Below, in pieces: positions 3,675-63,664 of a stretch of DNA of 64,000 nucleotides. Made by a program: the position numbers and the translations under genes. Within the stretch, counting starts at the first letter, position 1. Every line of letters begins with the position of its first letter. The stretch covers positions 144,532-208,531 of the forward strand of contig CAILLM010000004.1 in NCBI GenBank assembly GCA_903835075.1. The letters run 5' to 3'. The notes beneath the pieces were generated by a model that ran no database searches, was not told the origin of the DNA, and worked only from the letters and a program-made list of their open reading frames with translations. The stretch is from Candidatus Staskawiczbacteria bacterium. GTDB lineage: Bacteria; Patescibacteriota; Minisyncoccia; Minisyncoccales; Staskawiczbacteraceae.

Positions 3675-3791
3675 ATTTCTTAATATCATCTCTATTTCTG
3701 ACATGATAAAATAAAATTGATAAATGCTTGATTATTTATGGTTTTTGTGTCATAAATAATAATTATAATAATCATTTAAAATAAACAGTAA

Positions 3792-4775
3792 ATGGCATCA
3801 AATTCACGATTTAATGGTTCCAAAGATGATTTATTGCAAGTTTTTAACCTTTATGGGTTGAAAGTTTCAGGTATTCGATGTTTTAAAGATGGAATAATAA
3901 ATACATCTTATTGCCTTGATATAGAAGATGGATCAAAACTAGTGTTAAGAGTATATCAAAACGGTGACAAGAGTAGTGATGCCATTGGAAAAGAGTTGGA
4001 TTTCATGGAAAAAATGAATAATTCCGGCATTCCGGTTCCTTCAGTTATGAATAATGAAAATAGGGGGAAAATGACCATTTTTAGCGACTCTAATGGGAAA
4101 GAATGGCGAGCCATCATTATGACCTTTGCGGATGGGAGACACCTTAAGCCGGATGATCTTGATATTATTCCCGAATTTGCTACTTATCAGGCGAAAATGC
4201 ATTTATGTTCTGCCAAACTCAATAAAAATTCTGATGTGTCAAACTTTAAGGTTATGGTTGATTGGATGGACAAAGAATTTAAGGAGACAAAATCAAAAGG
4301 AATAAGCGAAGAAACATTTATAAAAATAGAAAATATATATACCGAACTAAAACAGGATATAGAATTAAATTACGAAAGTATACTGGAATTACCATTCGGA
4401 GACGTTCACTTGGATTATGATAGCGATAACATTATTGTGAGCGATGGTAAAATAAAGGCCATCTTAGATTTCGATGATATTTCTATGCAACCATTTATTT
4501 TAGATAGCGCAAATTCAATTTGGTGGTGGCTATTTAATAATAAAAAAGAGAAATATAAAGATATATTACAAAGTTATTTTAGCAGTTATAAAACAATAAG
4601 GGAAATTTCGGAAAAAGAATATAAATTATTAGGTTTATTTATGAGAATGAGAAATTTAACTTTAATATGTCTTCTTTATGTAAATATATCCGAAGAAACT
4701 AATTATATGGGAATTAATGAGGGTTTCAATTTGGATCCTTTATTAAAATCATTATATGGATTTTATTCCTTTTAA
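3792..4775 (+). CDS. aminoglycoside/choline-kinase family phosphotransferase (APH-like)
   Basis: 327 aa; catalytic-loop-like VHLDYDSDNIIV (HxDxxxxN) followed by ILDFDD (DFD). Confidence 0.8.
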   Translation: MASNSRFNGSKDDLLQVFNLYGLKVSGIRCFKDGIINTSYCLDIEDGSKLVLRVYQNGDKSSDAIGKELDFMEKMNNSGIPVPSVMNNENRGKMTIFSDSNGKEWRAIIMTFADGRHLKPDDLDIIPEFATYQAKMHLCSAKLNKNSDVSNFKVMVDWMDKEFKETKSKGISEETFIKIENIYTELKQDIELNYESILELPFGDVHLDYDSDNIIVSDGKIKAILDFDDISMQPFILDSANSIWWWLFNNKKEKYKDILQSYFSSYKTIREISEKEYKLLGLFMRMRNLTLICLLYVNISEETNYMGINEGFNLDPLLKSLYGFYSF

Positions 4776-5892
4776 TAAAACTTATGTACCAAGCGAAGCC
4801 AACGATTTAATCGCTGATGTTTTAATGTCCGGATGGATTACTACGGGGCCAAAAACAAAGGAGTTTGAAAAAGAATTTTTAGAAGTTATTGGAAGTAGTA
4901 ATGAGGCAATCGCTGTATCCTCTGGAACAGCTGCCCTACATCTAGCCTATATTGTATCTGGCATAAGGTCTGGAGACGAGGTTATCGTGCCAAGTTTTAC
5001 ATTTTGCTCTACTATAAATATGCTTGTCCATTTGGGCGCTAAGCCAATCTTTTGTGATATATCAGAAAATTCTTTGTGCATAGATCCAAACGATATAAGT
5101 AAAAAGATAACAAGTAAAACGAAGGCTATAGTAGTAGTTCATTATGCAGGATATCCATGCGAAATGGATAAGATTAATAAAATCGCGGAAGAACATAAAT
5201 TAATCGTTATAGAAGATGCCGCACATGCATTTCTTACAAAATATAATGGGAGTTACATAGGTTCAGGGAATAACATCACTTGTTTTAGTTTTTATGCGAC
5301 AAAGAACCTAACAACAGCCGAGGGTGGCATGGTTGTCTGTGCGGACAAGAAAAAGTCAGAAAGGATTAGAATGTTATCTATGCATGGAATTTCTAAAGAT
5401 GGATGGAATAGATATTCTGAAGTAGGAAAATGGAGATATGATGTAATTGAACCAGGCTACAAATATAATATGACTGATGTTCATGCATGTATCGGCCTTT
5501 CTCAATTAAAATATTACAATAAATCTAATTTAAGGAGAGTTGAAATAGCTGCAAAATATAAAGAAATTTTGTCTAGAAATCCATATATCATACTGCCCCC
5601 TGATCCGGTCGATAAAAACAGCAAACATGCATGGCATTTATTCGCGATTAGGGTTAGTGGTAATTCGCCCATTAGTAGGGACAATTTGATTATAAAACTC
5701 AAGGAATTTAATATTGGCACGAGCGTTCATTTTATCCCGAATCATCAGCAAAGCTTTTATAAAGATTCAACAATAATTTTGCCAGTCACAGAAAAAGTCG
5801 GTGATACTATCCTGTCTTTGCCTATGTATGAACTACTAACAGATAAAGAAATTATTTATATATCTGATACTATAAATCAGATTCTAAAATAA
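4756..5892 (+). CDS. DegT/DnrJ/EryC1/StrS-family PLP-dependent sugar aminotransferase
   Basis: 378 aa; SSGTAALHLAY, DAAHAF, and SFYATKNLTTAEGG carrying the PLP lysine; overlaps the upstream gene. Confidence 0.9.
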   Translation: MDFIPFNKTYVPSEANDLIADVLMSGWITTGPKTKEFEKEFLEVIGSSNEAIAVSSGTAALHLAYIVSGIRSGDEVIVPSFTFCSTINMLVHLGAKPIFCDISENSLCIDPNDISKKITSKTKAIVVVHYAGYPCEMDKINKIAEEHKLIVIEDAAHAFLTKYNGSYIGSGNNITCFSFYATKNLTTAEGGMVVCADKKKSERIRMLSMHGISKDGWNRYSEVGKWRYDVIEPGYKYNMTDVHACIGLSQLKYYNKSNLRRVEIAAKYKEILSRNPYIILPPDPVDKNSKHAWHLFAIRVSGNSPISRDNLIIKLKEFNIGTSVHFIPNHQQSFYKDSTIILPVTEKVGDTILSLPMYELLTDKEIIYISDTINQILK

Positions 5893-6878: not shown

Positions 6879-8094
6879 AAAGTATTCTATTAAACAAATT
6901 TATCCGTGGTTGGATTGCTTGATGGATCATCTTTTTTTTATTTTTTTTATATGTACATCACCTGTTACTAAAGAGTATTTTTATGGCTATAGTCAAAAAA
7001 TAAAGAAATATTTTAGAGGCAAAGAAATATTTTTCTTGAATAGTGGAAGGTCTGCTTTAGTATTAGCGTTATCGTCTCTTGGTATAAAAAGAAAAGACAA
7101 GGTTGCTATCACAGCATTCAATTGTCCTGCAGTAATAGATTCAATATTAAATGTTGGGGCCGAGCCCATATTTGTTGATATTAATGATTGTGGTGGTTTT
7201 GATTTGAGCCATCTCAAAAAAAGTATAAGAAAGGGCGTTAAGGCGATCATCATAACTCATGTTTATGGAATAGTGGATAATATTAAAGAGATAGAGAAAA
7301 TTTGCAGAGCAGATAATGTTTTAATAATCAACGATCTTGCTCAAGTCAATTCTTTTTTCTCAAAAGATATAAATGAATTTGGCAGTGTCCAAATATACAG
7401 TTTTGGGCCCGAAAAGCCTATTTTTAGCTTAAATATAGGCATAATAACAACAAAGGAGGAAAACATAGCAACTAAAATATCTGAAAATTACACCCAGAAG
7501 ACAGTATCGTCAGCGGATTTAGCCAGTATATTTATTAATCGATGGAAATATTATTTCACTTTTTTTGTTAATAAATATTTTTTTTCATTAGCCAATCTAT
7601 TTGCTAAATGTAATTTGATTTATTTGTTTAAGGATAAGAAGGAAGATGCTGATATAAATTTATACGAAAATATAATAGTAAAAAAAGCCAATCCATTCCA
7701 AATATTTTTAGCGGTGATAGGGATCGAGAAATATAGAAAAAGAATTATTAAGACCGAAGCAAACTTCATGTTACTAAAAAATAGGCTCAATGCTAAGGTT
7801 AAACTTATCGTGCCTGAGAGCTATAAAAATATCGTGCCTCATTATGCAACAATCAGGGCTGAAAAAGACAGGTTTCTCCTATCAAAATATCTTGCCGAAA
7901 ATGGCATTGCGACAGTTTGGAATTATTATCCATTGTATAAATATGCGGCATATAGTAATGTTGCTGGAAAAGAAAACTTATCTGAAACCGATAAAATTTG
8001 GAGGCAAGTTTTATCTTTACCATTTCGTTATCCGCTATCAGAGAGAAGTATTATTAGAATTGCTTATTTAGTAAATAATTTTTATGGCTATTAA
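6838..8094 (+). CDS. DegT-like aminotransferase-fold protein (divergent)
   Basis: 418 aa; FNCPAVIDSILNVGAEPIFVDIN resembles the DegT fold; YSFGPEKPIF lacks the usual GEGG; the true start may lie downstream of 6838. Confidence 0.55.
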   Translation: MIISKMEEYYPPIKKYSIKQIYPWLDCLMDHLFFIFFICTSPVTKEYFYGYSQKIKKYFRGKEIFFLNSGRSALVLALSSLGIKRKDKVAITAFNCPAVIDSILNVGAEPIFVDINDCGGFDLSHLKKSIRKGVKAIIITHVYGIVDNIKEIEKICRADNVLIINDLAQVNSFFSKDINEFGSVQIYSFGPEKPIFSLNIGIITTKEENIATKISENYTQKTVSSADLASIFINRWKYYFTFFVNKYFFSLANLFAKCNLIYLFKDKKEDADINLYENIIVKKANPFQIFLAVIGIEKYRKRIIKTEANFMLLKNRLNAKVKLIVPESYKNIVPHYATIRAEKDRFLLSKYLAENGIATVWNYYPLYKYAAYSNVAGKENLSETDKIWRQVLSLPFRYPLSERSIIRIAYLVNNFYGY

Positions 8095-10555: not shown

Positions 10556-10584
10556 TTGACTAATTTTGTATATTATAATATAAT
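10556..10584 (+). promoter_or_regulatory. sigma-70-type promoter (TTGACT-17-TATAAT) for the RNHCP gene
   Basis: TTGACT 10556-10561, 17-nt spacer, TATAAT 10579-10584. Confidence 0.6.
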
Positions 10585-10638
10585 AATACATTCTACTGAA
10601 AAATTCAATACCTAGCAACCAACAGAAAGGAGATCGAG

Positions 10639-11145
10639 ATGAAGCATAGTAGAAAGATTGGTGATGGAGATGATGATGATTTTCCTGTCCGAATTGACGG
10701 AAAACGCCTAGACAGGCAAAAAAGGAAACTCATCAAGCAGTCTCGTGGTATATCTTTTCGGTGCGTCCATTGCTCCGTTGAGATTTCCACCAATGCCACT
10801 GCAACGGCCCATCGGAATCATTGTCCGATGTGTCTGTGGTCAAGGCACGTTGATAACTCTGTAGGGGACAGAAGGTCGACTTGTTTGTCAGCTATGAAGC
10901 CATTGGGGCTTTCAATCAAAGAACCTGGCGAAGAGCTAATGATTGTTCACCAATGTGTAGCTTGCGACAAGATTATCAGAAATCGTATCGCAGGCGATGA
11001 CAACAGTTTCGTAATTATGGATCTTCTAGAGAGCAGTTTGCTGCTCCCCGAAGAGAAAGAATGCGAGATCGCCAAGGCTGGCATACAATTATGTGTCGAT
11101 AGGGAACTTGTTTCCCAATGTCTTTGGGGCAAAGCGACGATATGA
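10639..11145 (+). CDS. RNHCP-domain zinc-finger protein
   Basis: 168 aa with the literal AHRNHCPMCLWSRHVD motif plus further CxxC pairs; clearly more GC-rich than its neighbours. Confidence 0.7.
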   Translation: MKHSRKIGDGDDDDFPVRIDGKRLDRQKRKLIKQSRGISFRCVHCSVEISTNATATAHRNHCPMCLWSRHVDNSVGDRRSTCLSAMKPLGLSIKEPGEELMIVHQCVACDKIIRNRIAGDDNSFVIMDLLESSLLLPEEKECEIAKAGIQLCVDRELVSQCLWGKATI

Positions 11146-11184
11146 TGATCTGTCCCCGACCAAAAATGGTAGAGAAATCTGCCG

Positions 11185-11226
11185 GGGGGAGAGGCATTGT
11201 GTCTTTCCCCTTTTTTATTTCTTGAA
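11185..11226 (+). terminator. intrinsic terminator
   Basis: GGGGAGAGgcattgtgtCTTTCCCC followed by TTTTTT. Confidence 0.7.
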
Positions 11227-12669: not shown

Positions 12670-12691
12670 TTGTAAATAAACTTTTAAAAAT

Positions 12692-13024
12692 ATGGAAAAA
12701 ATAAAATTTAAACAAGATAAATATAAAAAGAATCGTGGCGGATATTCAAGATTTTTAGAAATAAAATGTGAAAGTTGTAGCGCTTTCATCGCCTTGTATC
12801 AGAAAGATGGGCCGGGTCCGCTGAAAAGGATGTATATAGATAGGATATTTTCTCCACAGAACTTAGTGAACTTACAAAAAGTTTCATTTAAAAAAATAAC
12901 CAACCTCACATGTTCTCATTGTAAACATATAATTGGTGTTCCAATTATCTACAAGAAGGAAAGTAGGCCTGCTTTTAGATTATTTGTCGGGGCTATAACC
13001 AAAAAGGTGGCAAAACTAAAATAG
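12692..13024 (+). CDS. 110-aa zinc-ribbon protein, copy 1
   Basis: CESC...CSHC pairs; paralog of 20775-21107 (7 of 110 residues differ). Confidence 0.7.
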   Translation: MEKIKFKQDKYKKNRGGYSRFLEIKCESCSAFIALYQKDGPGPLKRMYIDRIFSPQNLVNLQKVSFKKITNLTCSHCKHIIGVPIIYKKESRPAFRLFVGAITKKVAKLK

Positions 13025-13268
13025 TAAAAAGGTAATATATCTTATTTTCACCTAAAATTACTGGAAATAAGACACTTCCAAGATTTGTTAAAATCAAAAA
13101 CAAATGAGACACTAAAATGGTACGATATTTTGTCTCATTAGTCTCATTTCCCGAATAAAATTATAAGAAGTGAGACTCGGAGAATCTCGCCAATTTTATA
13201 TAAATTTTCTATAATTAAGCCCTACTAGGACACATCAGTTGGAAAACTCAAAAGGGTCTAATTTCCCC

Positions 13269-20241: not shown

Positions 20242-20775
20242 ATGACATTAAGTAAAAATAATATAATAATTACTGAGCCCACGTTGGAAGATGTTTTGGG
20301 ATTAGTTTTTGTACATAAGAAAACATGGTTAGATACGTATCCAAATAAAAAATATAAGATTTTTAAAAAAGATATTTTATTGAAAGATTTCGATAGTGAG
20401 AAAAAAATAAATAAATGGAAAAGAAGAATAAAAAATAACGGCAAAAAAAAGGAATATATTTGTGTTGCTAAAGATAGAGAAAAGGTTGTTGGATTTTGTT
20501 CTATTTCAAAAGGAGAGAAAATAAACGAATTAAAAACTATATATGTTTTGCCGGAATACCAAAGAATGAAAATAGGAAATAAACTATTTAATAAAGCAAT
20601 TAATTGGCTTGGTGACAAGAAAAACATAAAGACATTAGTAGCAATCTATAACGAAAATGCAATCAAGTTTTACAAAAAACATGGCTTTGCCAAAACGACG
20701 GTTACTAAAAGTTATAAATTTCCGAATGGAAAAATTATGCCGGAAATGCAATTAGTATTTAGCCGTAATAAATAA
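20242..20775 (+). CDS. GNAT-family N-acetyltransferase
   Basis: 177 aa; VVGFCSISKG...IYVLPEYQRMKIGNKLFNKAINWL (acetyl-CoA binding region); its stop overlaps the next ATG (TAATG). Confidence 0.8.
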   Translation: MTLSKNNIIITEPTLEDVLGLVFVHKKTWLDTYPNKKYKIFKKDILLKDFDSEKKINKWKRRIKNNGKKKEYICVAKDREKVVGFCSISKGEKINELKTIYVLPEYQRMKIGNKLFNKAINWLGDKKNIKTLVAIYNENAIKFYKKHGFAKTTVTKSYKFPNGKIMPEMQLVFSRNK

Positions 20776-21107
20776 TGGAAAAAATACAATTTAAACAAGA
20801 TAAATACAAAAAGAATCGTGGAGGTTATTCAAGATTTTTAGAAATAAAATGTGAAAGTTGTAGTGCTTTCATCGCTCTGTATCAAAAGGATGGCCCTGGT
20901 CCACTGAAGAGGATGTATATAGATAGAATATTTTCTCCGCAGAACTTAGCAAACTTACAAAAAGTTTCATTTAAAAAAATAGCCAATCTCACGTGTTCTC
21001 ATTGTAAACATATAATTGGTGTTCCAATCATCTACAAAAAAGAAAGTAGGCCTGCTTTTAGGTTATTTGTCGGGGCTGTAATTAAGAAGGTATCAAAAAT
21101 AAAATAA
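20775..21107 (+). CDS. 110-aa zinc-ribbon protein, copy 2
   Basis: By my hand count, about 32 of 333 nt differ from copy 1 and most are third-position changes; 7 aa differ. Confidence 0.7.
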   Translation: MEKIQFKQDKYKKNRGGYSRFLEIKCESCSAFIALYQKDGPGPLKRMYIDRIFSPQNLANLQKVSFKKIANLTCSHCKHIIGVPIIYKKESRPAFRLFVGAVIKKVSKIK

Positions 21108-21132
21108 AAAAAGTTAATGAATAATTTTAATA

Positions 21133-56167: not shown

Positions 56168-56860
56168 ATGATGGATTTCGAAATTTTAGAAAAAAAATTA
56201 GGAGTAGAATTCAAGGATAAGAATCTTTTAAAACATGCTTTCACGCACAGGTCTTATTTAAATGAAAACCCAGAATTAAAATTAGAGCATAATGAAAGAT
56301 TAGAATTTTTAGGAGATGCGGTTATGGAATTAATTGTGACAGAACATCTTTATAAAGAATATCCAGAAAAAGCAGAAGGAGACTTAACTAATTGGAGAGC
56401 TGCCCTAGTTAACGCAAAAATGTTAACCAGCGTTGCAAAAGAATTAGAGTTTAATGATTTTCTTTTGCTTTCTAAGGGTGAGTCGAAGGAAATGGGCAAA
56501 GCAAGAGATTATATTTTAGCTAATTCCTTTGAAGCATTTTTAGGGGCATATTACTTAGATTCTGGTTTTGATGCATGTGATGAATTTATAAAAAAGAATT
56601 TATTAAAAAATTTAGCAGAAATAATAAGAGACGGTTCGTATAAAGATGCAAAGTCAAAATTTCAGGAAGAGGCGCAAGAAAGAGTTTCTATTACGCCAAA
56701 TTATAAAGTAATCAGTGAGTCAGGTCCAGACCACGAAAAAAGTTTTGTGGTGGGAGTATACTTAAATGATGAGCTTGTTGCCGAAGGTAAGGGTTTGTCA
56801 AAACGTGAAGCAGAATCAGCAGCAGCCGAGCTGGCACTTGGTGTTAAAAAATGGAATTAA
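56168..56860 (+). CDS. rnc: ribonuclease III
   Basis: NERLEFLGDAV signature; C-terminal dsRBD ...GKGLSKREAESAAA. Confidence 0.95.
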   Translation: MMDFEILEKKLGVEFKDKNLLKHAFTHRSYLNENPELKLEHNERLEFLGDAVMELIVTEHLYKEYPEKAEGDLTNWRAALVNAKMLTSVAKELEFNDFLLLSKGESKEMGKARDYILANSFEAFLGAYYLDSGFDACDEFIKKNLLKNLAEIIRDGSYKDAKSKFQEEAQERVSITPNYKVISESGPDHEKSFVVGVYLNDELVAEGKGLSKREAESAAAELALGVKKWN

Positions 56861-56890
56861 TAAAAATTTAAAAAATAATTTTAAACAAAA

Positions 56891-57334
56891 ATGTTAACTA
56901 TTAGACTAACAAGAAAAGGAAAAAAGAATCAGCCATTTTTTAGAGTGGTTGTAATTGATAAAAGAAGTTCAACAAGAGGTGGAAGATCTGTTGAAGATTT
57001 GGGTTATGTTGACCCATTGAAAAAAAGAAAGAGCCTTAATGCAGAAAGAATAAAATATTGGCTTTCAAAAGGAGCACAAGCTTCAGATACAATGCACAAC
57101 CTTTTAGTTGCAGAAAAAATTATTGAAGCAGATAAAGTTCACGTTTCTAAATTGAGCAAAAAAGCAAAAGAAAAAATGAAAGCAACAGCTGAAGCAAAAG
57201 TTGCAGCAGAAGAGACAGCAAAAGCTAAGGCACCCGCCTCCGCCGAAGGCTCCGTCGAGGCAAAGGAAAAAGAAGAAGTTATACCAGAAGAGGCAGCACC
57301 AGAAGCTACCGAAGAGCCACCCGCCTCCGCATAA
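56891..57334 (+). CDS. rpsP: 30S ribosomal protein S16 with an Ala/Lys/Glu-rich C-terminal tail
   Basis: MLTIRLTRKGKKNQPFFRVVV. Confidence 0.95.
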   Translation: MLTIRLTRKGKKNQPFFRVVVIDKRSSTRGGRSVEDLGYVDPLKKRKSLNAERIKYWLSKGAQASDTMHNLLVAEKIIEADKVHVSKLSKKAKEKMKATAEAKVAAEETAKAKAPASAEGSVEAKEKEEVIPEEAAPEATEEPPASA

Positions 57335-57375
57335 ATCTACCGCGAGGCAACGACGGAATAAGATTTTATAAAAAC

Positions 57376-57401
57376 AAAAATCCGTTGAAAGGCGGATTTT
57401 T
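57376..57401 (+). terminator. terminator-like hairpin after rpsP
   Basis: AAAAATCCGttgaaaggCGGATTTTT. Confidence 0.55.
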
Positions 57402-57429
57402 AGATATATAGGGAAGAATGGAATGTCTA

Positions 57430-57458
57430 TTGACAAGGTTCTTTAAAAGTGCTATAAT
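57430..57458 (+). promoter_or_regulatory. perfect TTGACA-17-TATAAT promoter
   Basis: TTGACA 57430-57435; TATAAT 57453-57458. Confidence 0.7.
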
Positions 57459-57464
57459 TAGAAT

Positions 57465-57608
57465 ATAGAGGGCGTTTAGGAGATTTCTCTTTGTTGACCG
57501 ATTTTGTGGCTCCGGCTGCGAAACTCGAGATATAAAGTTCGGCAATGGAAAATTTTTATAATTTTTCGCAAGTATCGGACAGGAGAGATCTCCCAAGCGC
57601 CCTTTTCT
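57465..57608 (+). ncRNA. candidate ~145-nt rod-like RNA (sRNA or terminating leader)
   Basis: GGGCGTTTAGGAGATTTCTCT (57470-) pairs with AGGAGAGATCTCCCAAGCGCCC (-57602): about 20 bp with 1 mismatch, several G-U pairs valid only for the plus strand. The stem extends through TTGACCGAT/ATCGGACAG and GCGAAA/TTTCGC. A TTTTCT tract follows. Confidence 0.45.
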
Positions 57609-57661
57609 ATTCCAATATTCCGCGGAATAACGGAATAGCAGATGGTAGCACTTTAAAAGAG

Positions 57662-57714
57662 GTGGTTGCAGACATAAGTTACTAAAATCATTAGTATTTT
57701 CTGTCTGTGACTAC
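57662..57714 (+). promoter_or_regulatory. conserved 5'-UTR stem-loop, copy 1
   Basis: GTGGTTGCAGACA...TGTCTGTGACTAC, a 13-bp stem including G-U pairs. Confidence 0.6.
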
Positions 57715-57750
57715 TAAACAACAATAACAACGAACCGAAAGGAAAAAGAC

Positions 57751-58131
57751 ATGACACTGAAAAGAGCACAGGAAATCCTAACAAAAATCAACTGTTGGGA
57801 ATTGGATGGCAAGGGGGACTTTGCTGAAATCCAAACCGACCAAGAAGGTTGGCAGGCGTTCGCCGATGAAATTGGGATTACCCTAGATGAGCTTGACGAA
57901 TTCGTCACTCTCCATCTGATGGGTTGTCTTGATTCCGATGATGATTGGCCTGGTGACGACGAGGATGACTTCGAGCCGGCGATGCCTGAATTCGATGCGG
58001 AGGCATGGGAAGAGGAGAGCGGCACAAGTTGCCAAGTTTCCGATTCCAGGTCGTACAGCCCGCTGTCCACGGGCGATTGGTTTTCCGATGCCAACCAAGC
58101 CGCTTGTGACAGGGGTGGCGACGATGACTAG
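57751..58131 (+). CDS. very acidic 126-aa protein, paralog 1
   Basis: MTLKRAQEILTKINCWELDG... with long D/E runs; AAAGGAAAAAGAC precedes the ATG; GC-rich. Confidence 0.65.
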   Translation: MTLKRAQEILTKINCWELDGKGDFAEIQTDQEGWQAFADEIGITLDELDEFVTLHLMGCLDSDDDWPGDDEDDFEPAMPEFDAEAWEEESGTSCQVSDSRSYSPLSTGDWFSDANQAACDRGGDDD

Positions 58132-58152
58132 GACTCCCGCTAATCGTGGCTC

Positions 58153-58203
58153 GCAAGTGCCTATAAACTTGCAATGGACCTGCGGTTTTACCAAGGGTCC
58201 TTT
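58153..58203 (+). terminator. 3'-UTR hairpin (loop GCCTATAA) plus an intrinsic terminator
   Basis: GCAAGTgcctataaACTTGC, then GGACCtgcggttttaccaaGGGTCC followed by TTT. Confidence 0.6.
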
Positions 58204-58216
58204 AAATTGTTTAATA

Positions 58217-58245
58217 TTGACATTAATATTTTAAAGTGATATAAT
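58217..58245 (+). promoter_or_regulatory. perfect TTGACA-17-TATAAT promoter
   Basis: TTGACA 58217-58222; TATAAT 58240-58245. Confidence 0.7.
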
Positions 58246-58282
58246 CAAAACGAAAATTACAGAGGTTAGTTCTTTCAAAAAA

Positions 58283-58335
58283 GTGGTTGCAGGCAAAAGA
58301 TACAGATATTCTCGGTATTTTCTGTCTGCAACTAC
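58283..58335 (+). promoter_or_regulatory. conserved 5'-UTR stem-loop, copy 2
   Basis: GTGGTTGCAGGCA...TGTCTGCAACTAC. Differences from copy 1 keep pairing (T-G/G-T become T-A/G-C; A-T becomes G-T). Confidence 0.6.
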
Positions 58336-58365
58336 AAACAAAAAACTGAATTGAAAGGAAAAGAC

Positions 58366-58743
58366 ATGACACTTAAGAGAGCAAGAGAAATAGCCGATAA
58401 GGTCTTCGACTGGGAACAGAAAGCTGATGAAGGCACTTTTGGAGATGTTGTCGCCGGTGACAACTATCGGAACCTGTCAGTATTCACTGATATTCCAGAG
58501 CAGGAACTCAGGGAGTTTGAGGAGTACTGGGGATCCAACCGTTACTGTCGGGATGTCGAAGAGGATGCCGCTTGCGACCATAACCCGCAACGCTCGGTAA
58601 ACGAGGACCTTCTAACGGAGCTCGCCGACGGCGACGACGACGATGAAGCCGATTATGAGGCACTTCGCTATGCTGAGATGGAGCGCATCCTCGAAGAGGA
58701 CGGACTCCCCCTTCTCAACTCCTGGGACTATCGCTGGGCTTGA
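58366..58743 (+). CDS. very acidic 125-aa protein, paralog 2
   Basis: MTLKRAREIADKVFDWEQK...; shares the N-terminal ~55-aa pattern with paralog 1. ATG 58366 is preferred over the TTG at 58351. Confidence 0.65.
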   Translation: MTLKRAREIADKVFDWEQKADEGTFGDVVAGDNYRNLSVFTDIPEQELREFEEYWGSNRYCRDVEEDAACDHNPQRSVNEDLLTELADGDDDDEADYEALRYAEMERILEEDGLPLLNSWDYRWA

Positions 58744-58753
58744 ATTCGTGGCT

Positions 58754-58808
58754 ACAACGTGCCAATAAACGTTGTAAATGGACCCCTGGTAACTCTTGGG
58801 TCCTTTTT
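58754..58808 (+). terminator. 3'-UTR hairpin (loop TGCCAATAAA) plus an intrinsic terminator
   Basis: ACAACGtgccaataaaCGTTGT, then GGACCCctggtaactcttGGGTCC followed by TTTTT. Confidence 0.65.
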
Positions 58809-58850
58809 ATTGCATAATATTGACTCCTCACCATTTAATATGGTGAAGAG

Positions 58851-58879
58851 TTGACACCTTTTGCCAAAAGGAGTAAAAT
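58851..58879 (+). promoter_or_regulatory. TTGACA-17-TAAAAT promoter for the KH-trmD genes
   Basis: TTGACA 58851-58856; TAAAAT 58874-58879. Confidence 0.6.
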
Positions 58880-58901
58880 TAAATAAATTAAAGGTCGCAG
58901 G

Positions 58902-59249
58902 ATGAATATTAGTTTAAATGAAAGTACCATGACACAAGAAAACGATAAAGAGTTTCTTGAGTACATTGTTAAGGAATTAGTTGATAATCCTAAAGACGTC
59001 AAAGTAGAAAGAAAAGTTGACGAAATGGGAGTATTGCTTTCATTGAAAGTAAACCCAGCAGATATGGGTCAAATCATTGGAAGAGAAGGATCAACAGCCA
59101 AAGCAATCAGAAACTTGGTCCGAATTGTCGGATTAAAGAATCACGCCAGAGTGAACCTCAAAATTGAGGAACCAGAAGGCGGACGTGCTCCAAGACCAGA
59201 AGCAAAACAAGAAGTCACAGCAGACGACTTAGATAATATTTCTTTGTAA
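58902..59249 (+). CDS. KH-domain RNA-binding protein (YlqC-like) with a C-terminal extension
   Basis: ADMGQIIGREGSTAKAIRNLV (GxxG KH motif); usual position between rpsP and trmD. Confidence 0.85.
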   Translation: MNISLNESTMTQENDKEFLEYIVKELVDNPKDVKVERKVDEMGVLLSLKVNPADMGQIIGREGSTAKAIRNLVRIVGLKNHARVNLKIEEPEGGRAPRPEAKQEVTADDLDNISL

Positions 59250-59263
59250 TTTAAAGAAAAACA

Positions 59264-59288
59264 AAAAACGCATTCGTGCGTTTTTTGT
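59264..59288 (+). terminator. terminator-like hairpin
   Basis: AAAAAACGCAttcgTGCGTTTTTTG. Confidence 0.65.
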
Positions 59289-59310
59289 TTTTCTGTGTTA
59301 TAATCGTTAC

Positions 59311-60009
59311 ATGATTAAATTTGATGTAATTACAATTTTTCCAGAAATGTTTAGTTCTTATTTAAAAGAGAGCTTGATTTCGCGTGCACAGCAAAAAAAG
59401 TTTATAAAAATAAATTTACATAATTTAAGAAAGTGGACAACTGATAATCATAAAACAGTTGATGGTAGGCCATTTGGAGGTGGATTGGGAATGGTTTTAA
59501 AAGTGGAACCAATTTATAAAGCTGTGAAGTTTATAAAGTCAAAAGTTAAAGGTAAAAAGTCTAAGGTTATACTTTTCACGCCACGTGGACAAAAATTTAA
59601 TCAAAAGTTAGCCAACAAATTATCTAAGCTAAATCAAATTATTTTTATTTGTGGGCGGTATGAAGGCGTTGATGAAAGAGTTGGAGAAAAAATTGCTGAC
59701 ATGGAAATTTCAATTGGTGAGTATGACTTAATGGGTGGGGAATTGCCAGCAATGGTTGCCATTGAAACTATTTCAAGATTAGTGCCGGGAGTTATTGGCA
59801 AGGAACAATTGTTAAAAGAAAGGGTTTCAAAAACAGGAGGATTTTTAGAATATGCACAATACACCCGCCCTGAAATATTCAGGGCGAGGCTCGCCAAAGG
59901 CGGCAAGGCCAAGGTTGAAAGTTGGCGTGTGCCCGAGGTATTATTGTCGGGGAATCATAAAAAAATAGACGAGTGGAAAAAATTACACGGCAAGGTTATT
60001 GAAGAATAA
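59311..60009 (+). CDS. trmD: tRNA (guanine37-N1)-methyltransferase
   Basis: FDVITIFPEMF, DGRPFGGG, CGRYEGVDERV, VLLSGNH. Confidence 0.95.
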   Translation: MIKFDVITIFPEMFSSYLKESLISRAQQKKFIKINLHNLRKWTTDNHKTVDGRPFGGGLGMVLKVEPIYKAVKFIKSKVKGKKSKVILFTPRGQKFNQKLANKLSKLNQIIFICGRYEGVDERVGEKIADMEISIGEYDLMGGELPAMVAIETISRLVPGVIGKEQLLKERVSKTGGFLEYAQYTRPEIFRARLAKGGKAKVESWRVPEVLLSGNHKKIDEWKKLHGKVIEE

Positions 60010-62299: not shown

Positions 62300-62327
62300 T
62301 TGACAAAATGGCAAAAATGAGTAGAAT
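62300..62327 (+). promoter_or_regulatory. TTGACA-16-TAGAAT promoter
   Basis: TTGACA 62300-62305; TAGAAT 62322-62327. Confidence 0.55.
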
Positions 62328-62433
62328 ATATTTATTCGTCCTTTCACATTTTCAAATTGATTTATCTTGGTGGATAGAACCAACGACTGTGCAAGTGCGA
62401 CCAACCAACAACCACAACAACCATAATAACCGT

Positions 62434-63588
62434 ATGAAAGCAAAACGATTGATGTTCAACGTAGGCCCAGTCACTCAGCGTTCAATGCCGTACTGGCCGC
62501 TTCAAAACCCCGGCGCCGACCCGTTTGGTGGACCCATTTATGGCCCGACAGGGTCAATGGCAACTACTGACATCCTCTGCTGGGCCGCCGGCGAGGGACT
62601 GATTGAGCGTACGACAGCCCATGACGATGACCTCGTCCCATGGGATCCCGATAACCTCGAAGACGACATCGATCAGGATGGTCCGGTGTACAAACACATT
62701 ATGGAAATCAAGGCAAAACTCGATGCCGCCGGCCTCGAATTCCATGCCATTACGTGTAACCTCCATTCGCACCCGATGTTCCGTCGCGGTGGCTTGACCA
62801 ACCCCACTCCGGAAATCCGCGAATTGGCCAGGCAGAAGGTTTGGCGGGCGTTGCGCATTGGCGCTTTGCTTGGTGCGACGGCCTTCATTTATTGGATTGC
62901 AAGGGACGGATCCGAAGTCCCCATTGTTGTGCCGCCGCAAGCGATGCAATGGATCGAAGACGGCCTCAACGATGTGACCGATTACATCGAAGAAATGGGG
63001 TTCACCAACTACAAAATGGCGAGCATCGAGGACAAGCCCAACGAACCACGTGGGCATATGTTTTTGCCAACTGCCGGTCACGCCGCGGCATTCACTTACA
63101 AACTCAAGCGGCCTGACTTTTGGAAGGTCAATCCCGAGCTGTTGCAACACGAAGCGATGATTTGCCTCGATGCCGATACATGCGTTCGCTTCTTGGTTCA
63201 TCTCGGGAAGCTGGGCTTCTTGCACTTCGGATGCCAAATCAAGGGGCAATTCGACAGCGACTTCCCGCCGCTTGTTGGACCGGAAGGGTTGAAGGAAACC
63301 GTCAATATGTTCCGCGTGCTCGCACAGCTCGGATGGAGTGGCATCGTTGAATACGATTGCCATCCGTTGCCAACGGAAATGTTTGGTGTCGATCCCACCG
63401 ACTGCCGTAAGCAATTTATCCGTAATTGCAGCGACGGTCTCGGTATCGCGTTGGCCCTGGCCGCACACCTTGAGAAATACAAGGTCGGAGACTTGGGTGA
63501 CAGCGGGGAAGATTTATTGTCCATCCGCGTGATGTGCAGGCTTGGTGACGACGAACTCCTCGGCTTTGTGTCGCGGGATGTCAACTAA
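62434..63588 (+). CDS. divergent class-I (actinobacterial-type) xylose-isomerase-like protein, strongly GC-rich
   Basis: TTAHDDDLVPW (compare FHDDDLIPF), TCNLHSHPMF, IEDKPNEPRGHMFLPT (compare EPKPNEPRG), NPELLQHEAM, FDSDF. Start ATG 62434 (MKAKRLMF). The upstream part of the ORF-track frame is promoter and leader. Confidence 0.7.
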   Translation: MKAKRLMFNVGPVTQRSMPYWPLQNPGADPFGGPIYGPTGSMATTDILCWAAGEGLIERTTAHDDDLVPWDPDNLEDDIDQDGPVYKHIMEIKAKLDAAGLEFHAITCNLHSHPMFRRGGLTNPTPEIRELARQKVWRALRIGALLGATAFIYWIARDGSEVPIVVPPQAMQWIEDGLNDVTDYIEEMGFTNYKMASIEDKPNEPRGHMFLPTAGHAAAFTYKLKRPDFWKVNPELLQHEAMICLDADTCVRFLVHLGKLGFLHFGCQIKGQFDSDFPPLVGPEGLKETVNMFRVLAQLGWSGIVEYDCHPLPTEMFGVDPTDCRKQFIRNCSDGLGIALALAAHLEKYKVGDLGDSGEDLLSIRVMCRLGDDELLGFVSRDVN

Positions 63589-63617
63589 CCGGTAACACGT
63601 CGAATAAACCCAACAAT

Positions 63618-63664
63618 GCCTTTGCGCGAAACTTTCTAAGTTTTGTGCAAAGGCTTCTTTTTTT
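63618..63664 (+). terminator. intrinsic terminator
   Basis: GCCTTTGCgcgaaactttctaagttttgtGCAAAGGC followed by TTCTTTTTTT. Confidence 0.7.

Follow-up and report, generated by a model that had tools for sequence, protein, structure and literature searches.

Putative accessory-gene cassettes with a shared structured RNA leader between rpsP and the KH-domain gene of a Staskawiczbacteria genome

Phage morons, described by Hendrix and colleagues, are autonomous promoter-gene-terminator units of deviant base composition that are inserted between other genes. Hairpins in mRNA 5' leaders can be processed by RNase III or can stabilize the transcript, as in the T7 early mRNAs and in ompA, and chromosomal hotspots of horizontal transfer flanked by core genes were reportedly described by Oliveira, Touchon and Rocha in 2017. 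Putative mobile promoters consist of a homologous promoter region located before non-homologous genes (Matus-Garcia et al. 2012, PMC3488235). In diversity-generating retroelements (DGRs), a hairpin is found downstream of the variable repeat (VR), the stem of which is needed as a structure but free in sequence, while its loop is sequence-specific (Guo et al. 2011, PMC3240598). Here, we analyze two tandem GC-rich units, each carrying an open reading frame (ORF1 and ORF2) for a small acidic protein, between rpsP and the genes encoding a KH-domain protein and TrmD, on a stretch of 64,000 nucleotides from Candidatus Staskawiczbacteria bacterium (contig CAILLM010000004.1, positions 144,532 to 208,531; hereafter the window). 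This organism belongs to the Patescibacteria or candidate phyla radiation (CPR), bacteria with tiny genomes that are known almost only from metagenomes and in which the acquisition and expression of accessory genes are poorly understood.

On balance, we find it probable that the units are two tandem, self-contained accessory-gene cassettes, in which a reusable expression module is joined to foreign cargo, and that they reside in a lineage-specific hotspot; they are best read as moron-like cassettes built on a reusable promoter/leader module. This module would consist of a sigma-70-type promoter, a leader box, a 23-bp stem-loop, an A/CA-rich leader, the first nine codons, a 3' hairpin and a terminator. 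ORF, GC content, promoter and hairpin scans confirm the presence of two GC-rich tandem units between rpsP and the KH/trmD genes, as originally predicted from the sequence. While the window is AT-rich (∼33% GC), GC content is 0.52–0.57 over both ORFs, GC content at third codon positions (GC3) is 0.55–0.57 compared with 0.22–0.33 in the flanking genes, and leucine is encoded by CTN codons instead of the TTR codons of the host. The view of the units as autonomous insertions of foreign composition in the rpsP/KH/trmD operon is thereby supported. Like morons, the units have their own terminator and foreign GC content and codon usage, lie between unrelated genes and are present or absent among close relatives; the combination of own promoter, terminator and deviant composition is found here, except that only unit 2, and not unit 1, has a promoter of its own. 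Unlike morons, they reside not in a prophage but within a ribosomal-protein operon on the chromosome of a CPR bacterium, give no viral hits, and have a conserved structured leader in common. The features of the two units are:

57646-57660, + strand: leader box UAGCACUUUAAAAGA of unit 1, matching the UAGCACAUUUA box of other hairpin cassettes
57662-57714, + strand: 5' leader stem-loop of unit 1 (covariance model R1, 81.4 bits; covariation)
57715-57750, + strand: CA/A-rich leader of unit 1 with AAAGGA Shine-Dalgarno (SD)-like site (repeat alignment of the units)
57751-58131, + strand: ORF1, 126-residue orphan acidic protein (36 D+E, 6 K+R; GC content at codon positions 1/2/3 of 0.61/0.41/0.55)
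58153-58172, + strand: 3' hairpin H1 of unit 1, GCAAGU / ACUUGC, loop GCCUAUAA (unit alignment, fold)
58176-58209, + strand: terminator hairpin of unit 1, GGACCU...AGGGUCC with a weak U-tract (fold)
58217-58245, + strand: predicted promoter of unit 2, TTGACA-17-TGATATAAT (12/12 consensus positions, extended −10)
58283-58335, + strand: 5' leader stem-loop of unit 2 (R1, 81.5 bits; covariation)
58336-58365, + strand: A-rich leader of unit 2 with AAAGGA site (unit alignment)
58366-58743, + strand: ORF2, 125-residue orphan acidic protein (36 D+E, 13 K+R)
58753-58776, + strand: 3' hairpin H1 of unit 2, UACAACGU / ACGUUGUA, loop GCCAAUAA (unit alignment, fold)
58780-58811, + strand: terminator hairpin of unit 2, GGACCC...UGGGUCC with UUUUUAUU (fold)

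The two units can be aligned in their leader, their first codons and their 3' untranslated region (UTR). DNA identity between them amounts to 77% in the hairpin, 78% in codons 1–9 and 64% in the 3' UTR, as against 37–40% in the remainder of the coding sequence. The start context AAAGGAAAAGAC-ATG is common to both, and the alignment reveals in each unit the expected CA-rich leader and SD-like ATG context. At the protein level, BLASTP aligns ORF1 and ORF2 with 33% identity over 54 residues, a signal that stems from the common start MTLKRAxEI: when residues 1–9 are removed, the best local score is 37 versus 36.2 ± 6.6 for shuffled sequences, and the observed value is equalled or exceeded by 820 of 2000 shuffles. 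The proposed shared N-terminal domain of ∼55 residues is therefore not supported, nor can the proteins be demonstrated to be paralogues, as their similarity is confined to the first nine residues. Because identity falls to shuffle level beyond this point, the entity shared by the units is the expression module (box, hairpin, leader, nine codons and 3' UTR), which, judging from the alignment, has been duplicated or exchanged, the cargos ORF1 and ORF2 being not detectably homologous. As with mobile promoters, a promoter-plus-leader region thus stands before non-homologous genes, both within and across genomes; in contrast to these, the module adds a covarying 23-bp stem-loop and, in the window, also the first nine codons and the 3' UTR.

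Both 5' UTRs fold beyond shuffled sequences (z −6.8 and −6.4). Alignment of copies corrects the 5' stem from the 13 bp first proposed to a helix of 23 pairs with one conserved 1×1 mismatch. A covariance model (R1) built from the two window copies and that of locus L007 (loci of the comparison set are numbered with the prefix L) detects copies, among 80 loci around rpsP, in L007 and in the Yanofskybacteria genome of L050; the GC-rich ORFs that follow them have no relation to ORF1 or ORF2. Scanning metagenome contigs with a pattern yielded 11 more hairpin loci, in which a consensus promoter 45–55 nt upstream, a box (UAGCACAUUUA or UAGUUCUUUUAAA, the window units carrying UAGCACUUUA and UAGUUCUUUCAAA), the stem-loop and an SD site are followed by a GC-rich ORF of 60–217 residues; no Pfam family was found in the ORFs behind these 11 hairpins. 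The family numbers at least 18 copies, and across CPR its cargos range from a membrane protein and other orphans to DGR variable proteins. In an alignment of 14 copies, 97.8% of the cells pair and 11 of the 23 pairs show changes on both sides, values that none of 500 shuffles reaches, and pairing falls to 35–51% when the 3' partners are slid by 1–3 columns. Hence, the 5' hairpin covaries beyond the two window copies, and the idea that it is under selection as an RNA structure is upheld. Since several conserved G·U pairs occur on the + strand only, which in addition always scores far above the − strand with R1, the hairpin probably functions in RNA.

At gathering thresholds, Rfam 15 recognizes only three tRNAs in the window. 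Neither the 5' hairpin nor the 3' hairpins nor the small RNA described below has a match; at permissive thresholds the best E value over 57330-58900 was 1.8 and all matches stayed far short of their gathering scores, and a scan of viral contigs for the hairpin pattern gave 0 hits. The 5' leader family appears to be undescribed and is absent from Rfam. Identity with the tigRNAs of TIGR systems, an idea prompted by a 2026 preprint on Staskawiczbacteria TIGR-Tas systems and assessed by comparison with their published description, was rejected: tigRNAs have box C/D motifs that flank two unpaired spacers of ∼14 nt inside a stem, next to a tas gene, whereas the leader forms a continuous 23-bp helix with no spacer pair and no adjacent tas gene.

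The slot in which the units lie is bounded upstream by rpsP and downstream by a promoter, P2, of the KH-domain gene. The rpsP gene of the window has its closest counterparts in Candidatus Staskawiczbacteria (Parcubacteria). The features outside the two units are:

56891-57334, + strand: rpsP, ribosomal protein S16 with a long C-terminal extension (Pfam Ribosomal_S16, E 1.2e-18), upstream slot boundary
57375-57402, + strand: rpsP terminator hairpin, AAAAAUCCG...CGGAUUUUU (terminator scan and inverted repeat)
57430-57458, + strand: predicted promoter P1, TTGACA-17-TGCTATAAT (12/12 consensus positions of TTGACA-17-TGnTATAAT, extended −10)
57466-57607, + strand: structured small RNA (15 copies in 13 loci; covariance model)
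57600-57645, + strand: short hairpin between small RNA and cassette leader, CUAUUCC..UUCCG/CGGAA..GGAAUAG (inverted repeat; fold)
58851-58879, + strand: predicted promoter P2 of the KH-domain gene (11/12 consensus; kept in related loci), downstream slot boundary
58902-59249, + strand: gene for a KhpA-like KH-domain protein (Pfam KH_KhpA-B, E 1.8e-21)
59311-60009, + strand: trmD (Pfam tRNA_m1G_MT, E 7.5e-48)

The original prediction assumed that rimM or nothing usually lies between rpsP and the KH/trmD genes. This fails for the present clade: a survey of the interval in relatives revealed a hypervariable slot with GC-rich orphan cargo, the rpsP-to-KH gap of Staskawiczbacteria-like loci measuring 198–5563 nt and holding small GC-rich (0.42–0.58) ORFs of many unrelated kinds. 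Nearly every gap (27 of 29 surveyed) is framed by P1, which follows the rpsP terminator, and by P2, located immediately ahead of the KH gene, and promoters with 11 or more of the 12 positions matched have a density of 1.12 per kb inside the gaps versus 0.04 per kb outside. In locus L008 the site is 'empty', its content being limited to P1, the small RNA and P2. The sister lineage L006 (89% nucleotide identity in trmD) has the same pair of cassettes and, between the KH gene and trmD, an additional one (2040-2530, − strand), with a TTGACA-17-TATAAT promoter, a small hairpin, a CA-rich leader ACCGCCAACCCCACCAACG and a GC-rich ORF of ∼120 residues with a hydrophobic N-terminus.

Contigs of the same species are all identical across the island (56657-59058), and the two proteins do not differ among 23 contigs from many samples, the sole cluster variants being one I-to-L change and one stop-codon read-through. 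Adjacent tracts, on the other hand, differ by up to 19% (51 differences in 56392-56656, in rnc), and a second divergent patch with indel-rich tracts runs from the distal part of the KH gene into the beginning of trmD (59174-59328). Such dense divergent patches on either side of the island suggest recombination break-points near the hotspot. Divergent flanking tracts around an identical island fit a turnover of the hotspot by homologous recombination in the conserved flanks. Highly variable content between the same two core genes, lack of mobility genes and recombination tracts in the flanks are all in common with known hotspots; what differs is that the slot is bounded by two conserved consensus promoters and often headed by a structured leader RNA. 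The locus thus adds a clade-specific hotspot inside a ribosomal-protein operon, framed by two conserved promoters.

Both units had been credited with a promoter of their own. This holds for unit 2 (58217-58245) but not for unit 1, since the promoter assigned to the latter, P1, lies 203 nt upstream of the unit 1 hairpin and is directly followed by a structured RNA of ∼140 nt, which it would drive. The promoter scan shows no promoter-like site between this small RNA and ORF1, so that unit 1 is most simply transcribed by read-through. The small RNA has a long closing stem conserved in sequence (GGGCGUUUAGGAGAUUUCUC / GAGAGAUCUCCCAAGCGCCC), an internal hairpin with a UCCG loop and a U-run behind it. 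It is 90–91% identical in two related genomes (L007 and L008) and recognizable in 13 related loci with 15 copies of ∼115–145 nt, downstream of rpsP in Staskawiczbacteria. Apart from the window copy (57466-57607, + strand), these include L007 6549-6690, L008 6605-6747, L022 793-927 and 1775-1896, and L040 6353-6474 and 6529-6677; in L022 and L040 the RNA is duplicated along with cargo genes. The consensus structure comprises 32 pairs, 13 of which show compensatory changes, and the corresponding covariance model (R2) scores 126 bits on the + strand and 38 on the − strand. In L008, it occurs by itself in the gap from rpsP to the KH gene, preceded by a promoter of its own and followed, behind the closing stem, by a U-run. 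A search of Rfam 15 with the small RNA gave no match, and identification as signal recognition particle RNA, 6S RNA, 5S rRNA or a riboswitch was rejected on this ground and because of its different architecture. It appears to be a previously unclassified, covariation-supported family. At least two other conserved leader RNAs follow P1 in further Staskawiczbacteria, one forming a long hairpin (CCCUUGUUUCAAAUCAUUAG...UAGUGRUUUGAAACAAGGG) and a second ending in CCUUUCUUUCAGGUCACCGUUGG; they are located at L009 ∼6965-7080, L017 ∼4670-4790, L007 7100-7185 and L022 1895-2015, and also downstream of P1 in L031, L037, L042, L043 and L047.

The P1 spacer/extended −10 region (57440-57454, TCTTTAAAAGTGCTA) and the leader box of unit 1 (57646-57660, TAGCACTTTAAAAGA) form a 15-nt inverted repeat with 14 of 15 positions matching, the arms of which bracket the small RNA. 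It could be an operator pair, the relic of a rearrangement, or due to chance.

In the mechanism that we propose for the cassettes, P1 would transcribe the small RNA and read through into unit 1, whose transcript would be released or stabilized at the stem-loop, and unit 2 would be transcribed from its own promoter. The stem-loop would act in the mRNA and not in the DNA, as a processing and/or stabilizing element or as the binding site of a shared regulator. With about two helical turns and one internal mismatch it has the form of an RNase III substrate, its 23 pairs satisfying the helix length of ∼20 bp or more in the 5' UTR that is typical of such hairpins, and the rnc gene (56168-56860) lies 0.8 kb upstream; it might define or protect the 5' end of the mRNA, or else bind a regulator that other cassettes and DGR targets share with it. 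The A/CA-rich leader, being unstructured, would favour efficient initiation, and the two 3' hairpins would stabilize and terminate the transcript. Known RNase III-type leader hairpins are alike in that a helix of about two turns with one mismatch follows a strong promoter, the unit 1 hairpin being placed between an upstream RNA and the coding region. They are unlike it in that here the stem sequence is conserved across distant CPR lineages and the hairpin lies 38–55 nt from the predicted transcription start. The leader RNA provides a handle for seeking its putative regulator or processing enzyme.

Several points weigh against this interpretation. Promoter use, read-through and processing are all things that we infer from the sequence. 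The stem-loop of unit 2 begins ∼38 nt from the predicted transcription start, and those of other members 45–55 nt from it; by position the hairpin is not a classical 5'-terminal stabilizer, unless the RNA is processed, and the strong conservation of the stem sequence together with the 1×1 mismatch hints at a putative specific binding partner. In the 11 members found by the metagenome scan, the search pattern fixed part of the outer stem, although the inner stem, which covaries most, and the copies obtained with the covariance model or by protein look-ups are free of this bias. The ORF1 region (57751-58131) folds unusually well (z −5.2, versus −1.5 for ORF2). A function common to both cargos, invisible to sequence comparison, could underlie their acidic composition. 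Moreover, no recombinase or transposase adjoins the slot, the neighbouring genes being nusB, rnc, rpsP, the KH gene, trmD, rpmG and guaA; there is no clear target-site duplication at the cassettes, and no mechanism of insertion or exchange was found.

As to the cargo, the predicted proteins of ∼125 residues with an extreme content of acidic residues are indeed present (126 and 125 residues, 36 Asp+Glu or 29% in each), with net charges of ∼−30 for ORF1 and −23 for ORF2. In a word-indexed search of 5.8 billion clusters and in an exhaustive HMMER search of 1.84 billion representatives with a two-sequence profile, only self-hits were obtained; no meaningful match came from Pfam, PHROGs, PADLOC, NCBIfam or PDB sequences, and none at all from a protein-based scan of IMG/VR. 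The impression that the proteins belong to no recognized family was thus correct. Of the two approaches suggested for placing them, profile searching left both as orphans without a homologue, and structure prediction produced AlphaFold2 single-sequence models of low confidence (mean pLDDT 55.3 for ORF1 and 44.8 for ORF2), with a few short N-terminal helices and low-confidence acidic tails.

The original prediction regarded ORF1 and ORF2 as a dedicated two-gene system of paralogous hyper-acidic proteins (DNA mimics, anti-restriction proteins or chaperones), with the UTR hairpins as gene-specific riboregulators. We consider this unlikely. The Asp+Glu content and net charges, the common MTLKRAxEI and UTR elements, the 3' hairpins that swap stems and keep loops, and the predicted helices with acidic tails would all be in keeping with such a system. 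However, similarity beyond residue 9 equals that of shuffles, the databases hold no homologue, a phage context is absent, and the 5' hairpin also precedes membrane proteins, orphans and DGR variable proteins; cargos without detectable homology behind a hairpin that is put to use before unrelated genes do not support a dedicated pair. Like Ocr and ArdA, the two proteins are small, very negatively charged and predicted to be strongly expressed; unlike them, they show no sequence or profile similarity to these, their models are low-confidence and largely disordered, and they are not encoded on a phage or plasmid. As there is no profile match and the models are of low confidence, charge is what the DNA-mimic idea has to go by. 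Within the cassette interpretation, the acidic proteins would be accessory, probably conflict-related, and their partners might be basic or nucleic-acid-binding proteins; no other step of the proposed mechanism is as weak, and a role in conflict is a best guess held with low confidence. Their importance may be purely local, and the novelty of the locus lies more in the RNA module, the association with DGRs and the architecture of the hotspot.

The association with DGRs emerges from one type of hairpin-led cargo (L093, L094 and L095), which belongs to a large Patescibacteria-specific family, P0005, comprising 2506 clusters that are all annotated as hypothetical. Members of P0005 were sampled independently of the hairpin. 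Genes for bAvd and/or reverse transcriptase (RT) adjoin them in L099, L102, L104 and L105. The 3' end of the P0005 gene is repeated 330–460 nt downstream, and mismatches between the copies all fall at adenines of the downstream copy in L099, L101 and L102, as do 15 of 17 in L095; such adenine-linked mismatches between VR and template repeat (TR) are a DGR hallmark. In eight loci, a conserved region of ∼200 nt precedes the TR, between the CPR DGR variable gene and the TR (L087 2251-2404, L094 1547-1748, L095 940-1116, L097 1227-1428, L099 3152-3324, L100 63-259, L101 3135-3332 and L102 946-1149), and probably corresponds to a structured 5' portion of the DGR RNA. Upstream of the P0005 gene, R1 finds the leader hairpin in L102 (E 4e-11), L103 (2e-11), L100 (4e-6) and L101 (9e-4), while L099 and L104 give weak matches and L105 none. 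L103 has a second copy before a neighbouring orphan of 205 residues, within a secY-adk-map cluster that has no RT in its vicinity. The leader hairpin is thus a frequent feature of CPR DGR variable genes, though not an exclusive one. The covariance models R1 and R2 can serve to search CPR metagenomes for accessory genes and DGR targets.

The two L103 hairpins (2376-2435 and 3780-3838) lie between two Peptidase_M24 ORFs, an arrangement that parallels the tandem cassettes of the window. A 9-nt direct repeat (AATAGGCGA) around the L094 and L097 cassettes was considered as a target-site duplication and rejected, its downstream copy lying inside the conserved TR-leader RNA.

The 3' ends of the units touch on the same theme. 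As the original prediction stated, and as alignment and folding confirm, the H1 stems are entirely different between units yet perfectly paired around a GCCWAUAA loop, and each H1 is followed by a GGACC...GGGUCC terminator hairpin with a U-rich tract. Both stems are perfect Watson-Crick palindromes (GCAAGT..ACTTGC in unit 1, ACAACGT..ACGTTGT in unit 2). This pattern, known from two copies in one species, recalls the DGR target hairpin with its free stem and specific loop (PMC3240598) and provides a lead.

Taken further, the promoter-box-hairpin leader and the 3' hairpin might mark a CPR-wide class of cassettes tied to DGRs, with ORF1 and ORF2 as trans-targeted or retired targets and the slot between rpsP and the KH gene as a capture-and-expression platform headed by the small RNA, a broad scenario that strikes us as quite unlikely. 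That ORF1 and ORF2 themselves are DGR targets, trans-targeted or retired, with H1 as a target-recognition hairpin or cruciform, is in our estimation very unlikely. The resemblance extends to the 5' leader hairpin that precedes CPR DGR variable genes with their VR/TR pairs and RT/bAvd genes, and to 3' hairpins with a conserved stem structure, a free, palindromic stem sequence and a conserved loop. Nevertheless, tblastn with RT, bAvd and variable-protein queries from CPR DGRs found no match in either the window or the 80 rpsP loci, a comparison of the 64-kb window with itself reveals no VR/TR-like repeat, and neither a template repeat nor Avd nor VR variability accompanies the units, ORF1 and ORF2 being invariant across the 23 contigs from many samples. 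Furthermore, the cargo is acidic, shows no resemblance to P0005 and lacks a C-type-lectin-like C-terminus, and the CPR DGR targets examined here carry another post-stop element instead of H1, namely a 4–5-bp stem with a UUU loop.

In the course of this comparison, a 350-nt repeat in the window (12688-13036 / 20770-21118) was rejected as a VR/TR pair, being a plain duplication of a gene for a 110-residue protein. The copies are 90% identical, each located downstream of a different gene, and their Cys-rich products, 94% identical, give a weak match resembling the RIG-I C-terminal domain.

To the proposal that the slot is an integron-like platform for capture and expression, with site-specific exchange of cassettes at the hairpins or at the small RNA gene, we give very little credence. 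Such a platform would account for the variable arrays of foreign genes behind P1 in nearly all Staskawiczbacteria loci, for the recurrence of AATATTGAC at unit boundaries, for the joint duplication of small RNA and cargo in L022 and L040, and for the different cargos that L087, L094 and L097 carry under the same leader at the orthologous site next to the TR leader. Yet no integrase or transposase lies next to the slot (an IntI-type integrase is lacking among the neighbouring genes nusB to guaA; the whole window was not screened for one), and the 3' hairpins contain no attC core boxes R''/R' (RYYYAAC / GTTRRRY), so that an attC identity was dropped. The many G·U pairs, on one strand only, point to RNA and not to duplex DNA, and homologous recombination in the flanks, with mosaic tracts up to 19% divergent within 1 kb of the island, would suffice. 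On the features compared, then, the units are not members of integrons, DGR targets, TIGR arrays, Rfam or Pfam.

Returning to the cassettes as genes, both ORFs show GC1 > GC3 > GC2 in the annotated frame, each spans exactly the distance from the conserved SD-ATG to the conserved 3' module, and three of the four codon differences in codons 1–9 are synonymous third-position changes (CTG/CTT, AAA/AAG, ATC/ATA). By these signs, ORF1 and ORF2 are probably translated and of compositionally foreign origin. The least probable alternative, that the GC-rich segments are noncoding (structured RNAs or decaying foreign DNA with chance frames), can appeal to the long open frames in four other frames and the strong folding (z −5.2) of the ORF1 region and to the lack of homologues and of population variation by which to test selection, but has against it this codon-position periodicity, the mostly synonymous early differences, the exact fit between SD-ATG and 3' module, and an ORF2 region with only one long frame and ordinary folding (z −1.5).

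Similar cassettes occur elsewhere in the window, at 10556-11220 (+ strand), 28344-28050 (− strand) and 62303-63660 (+ strand). These three GC-rich genes have a consensus or near-consensus promoter, a short hairpin and/or a CA-rich leader without a clear SD site, and a strong terminator. The first encodes an RNHCP-domain protein, the second a membrane peptide of 46 residues and the third a sugar-phosphate-isomerase/endonuclease-like protein with a Pfam AP_endonuc_2 match. IMG/VR and PHROGs scans revealed no phage context for the window cassettes, and their surroundings are housekeeping genes. Finally, trmD is apparently near-leaderless, its ATG lying 6 nt downstream of the end of a TATAAT hexamer (gttataatcgttacATG; window 59290-59313).

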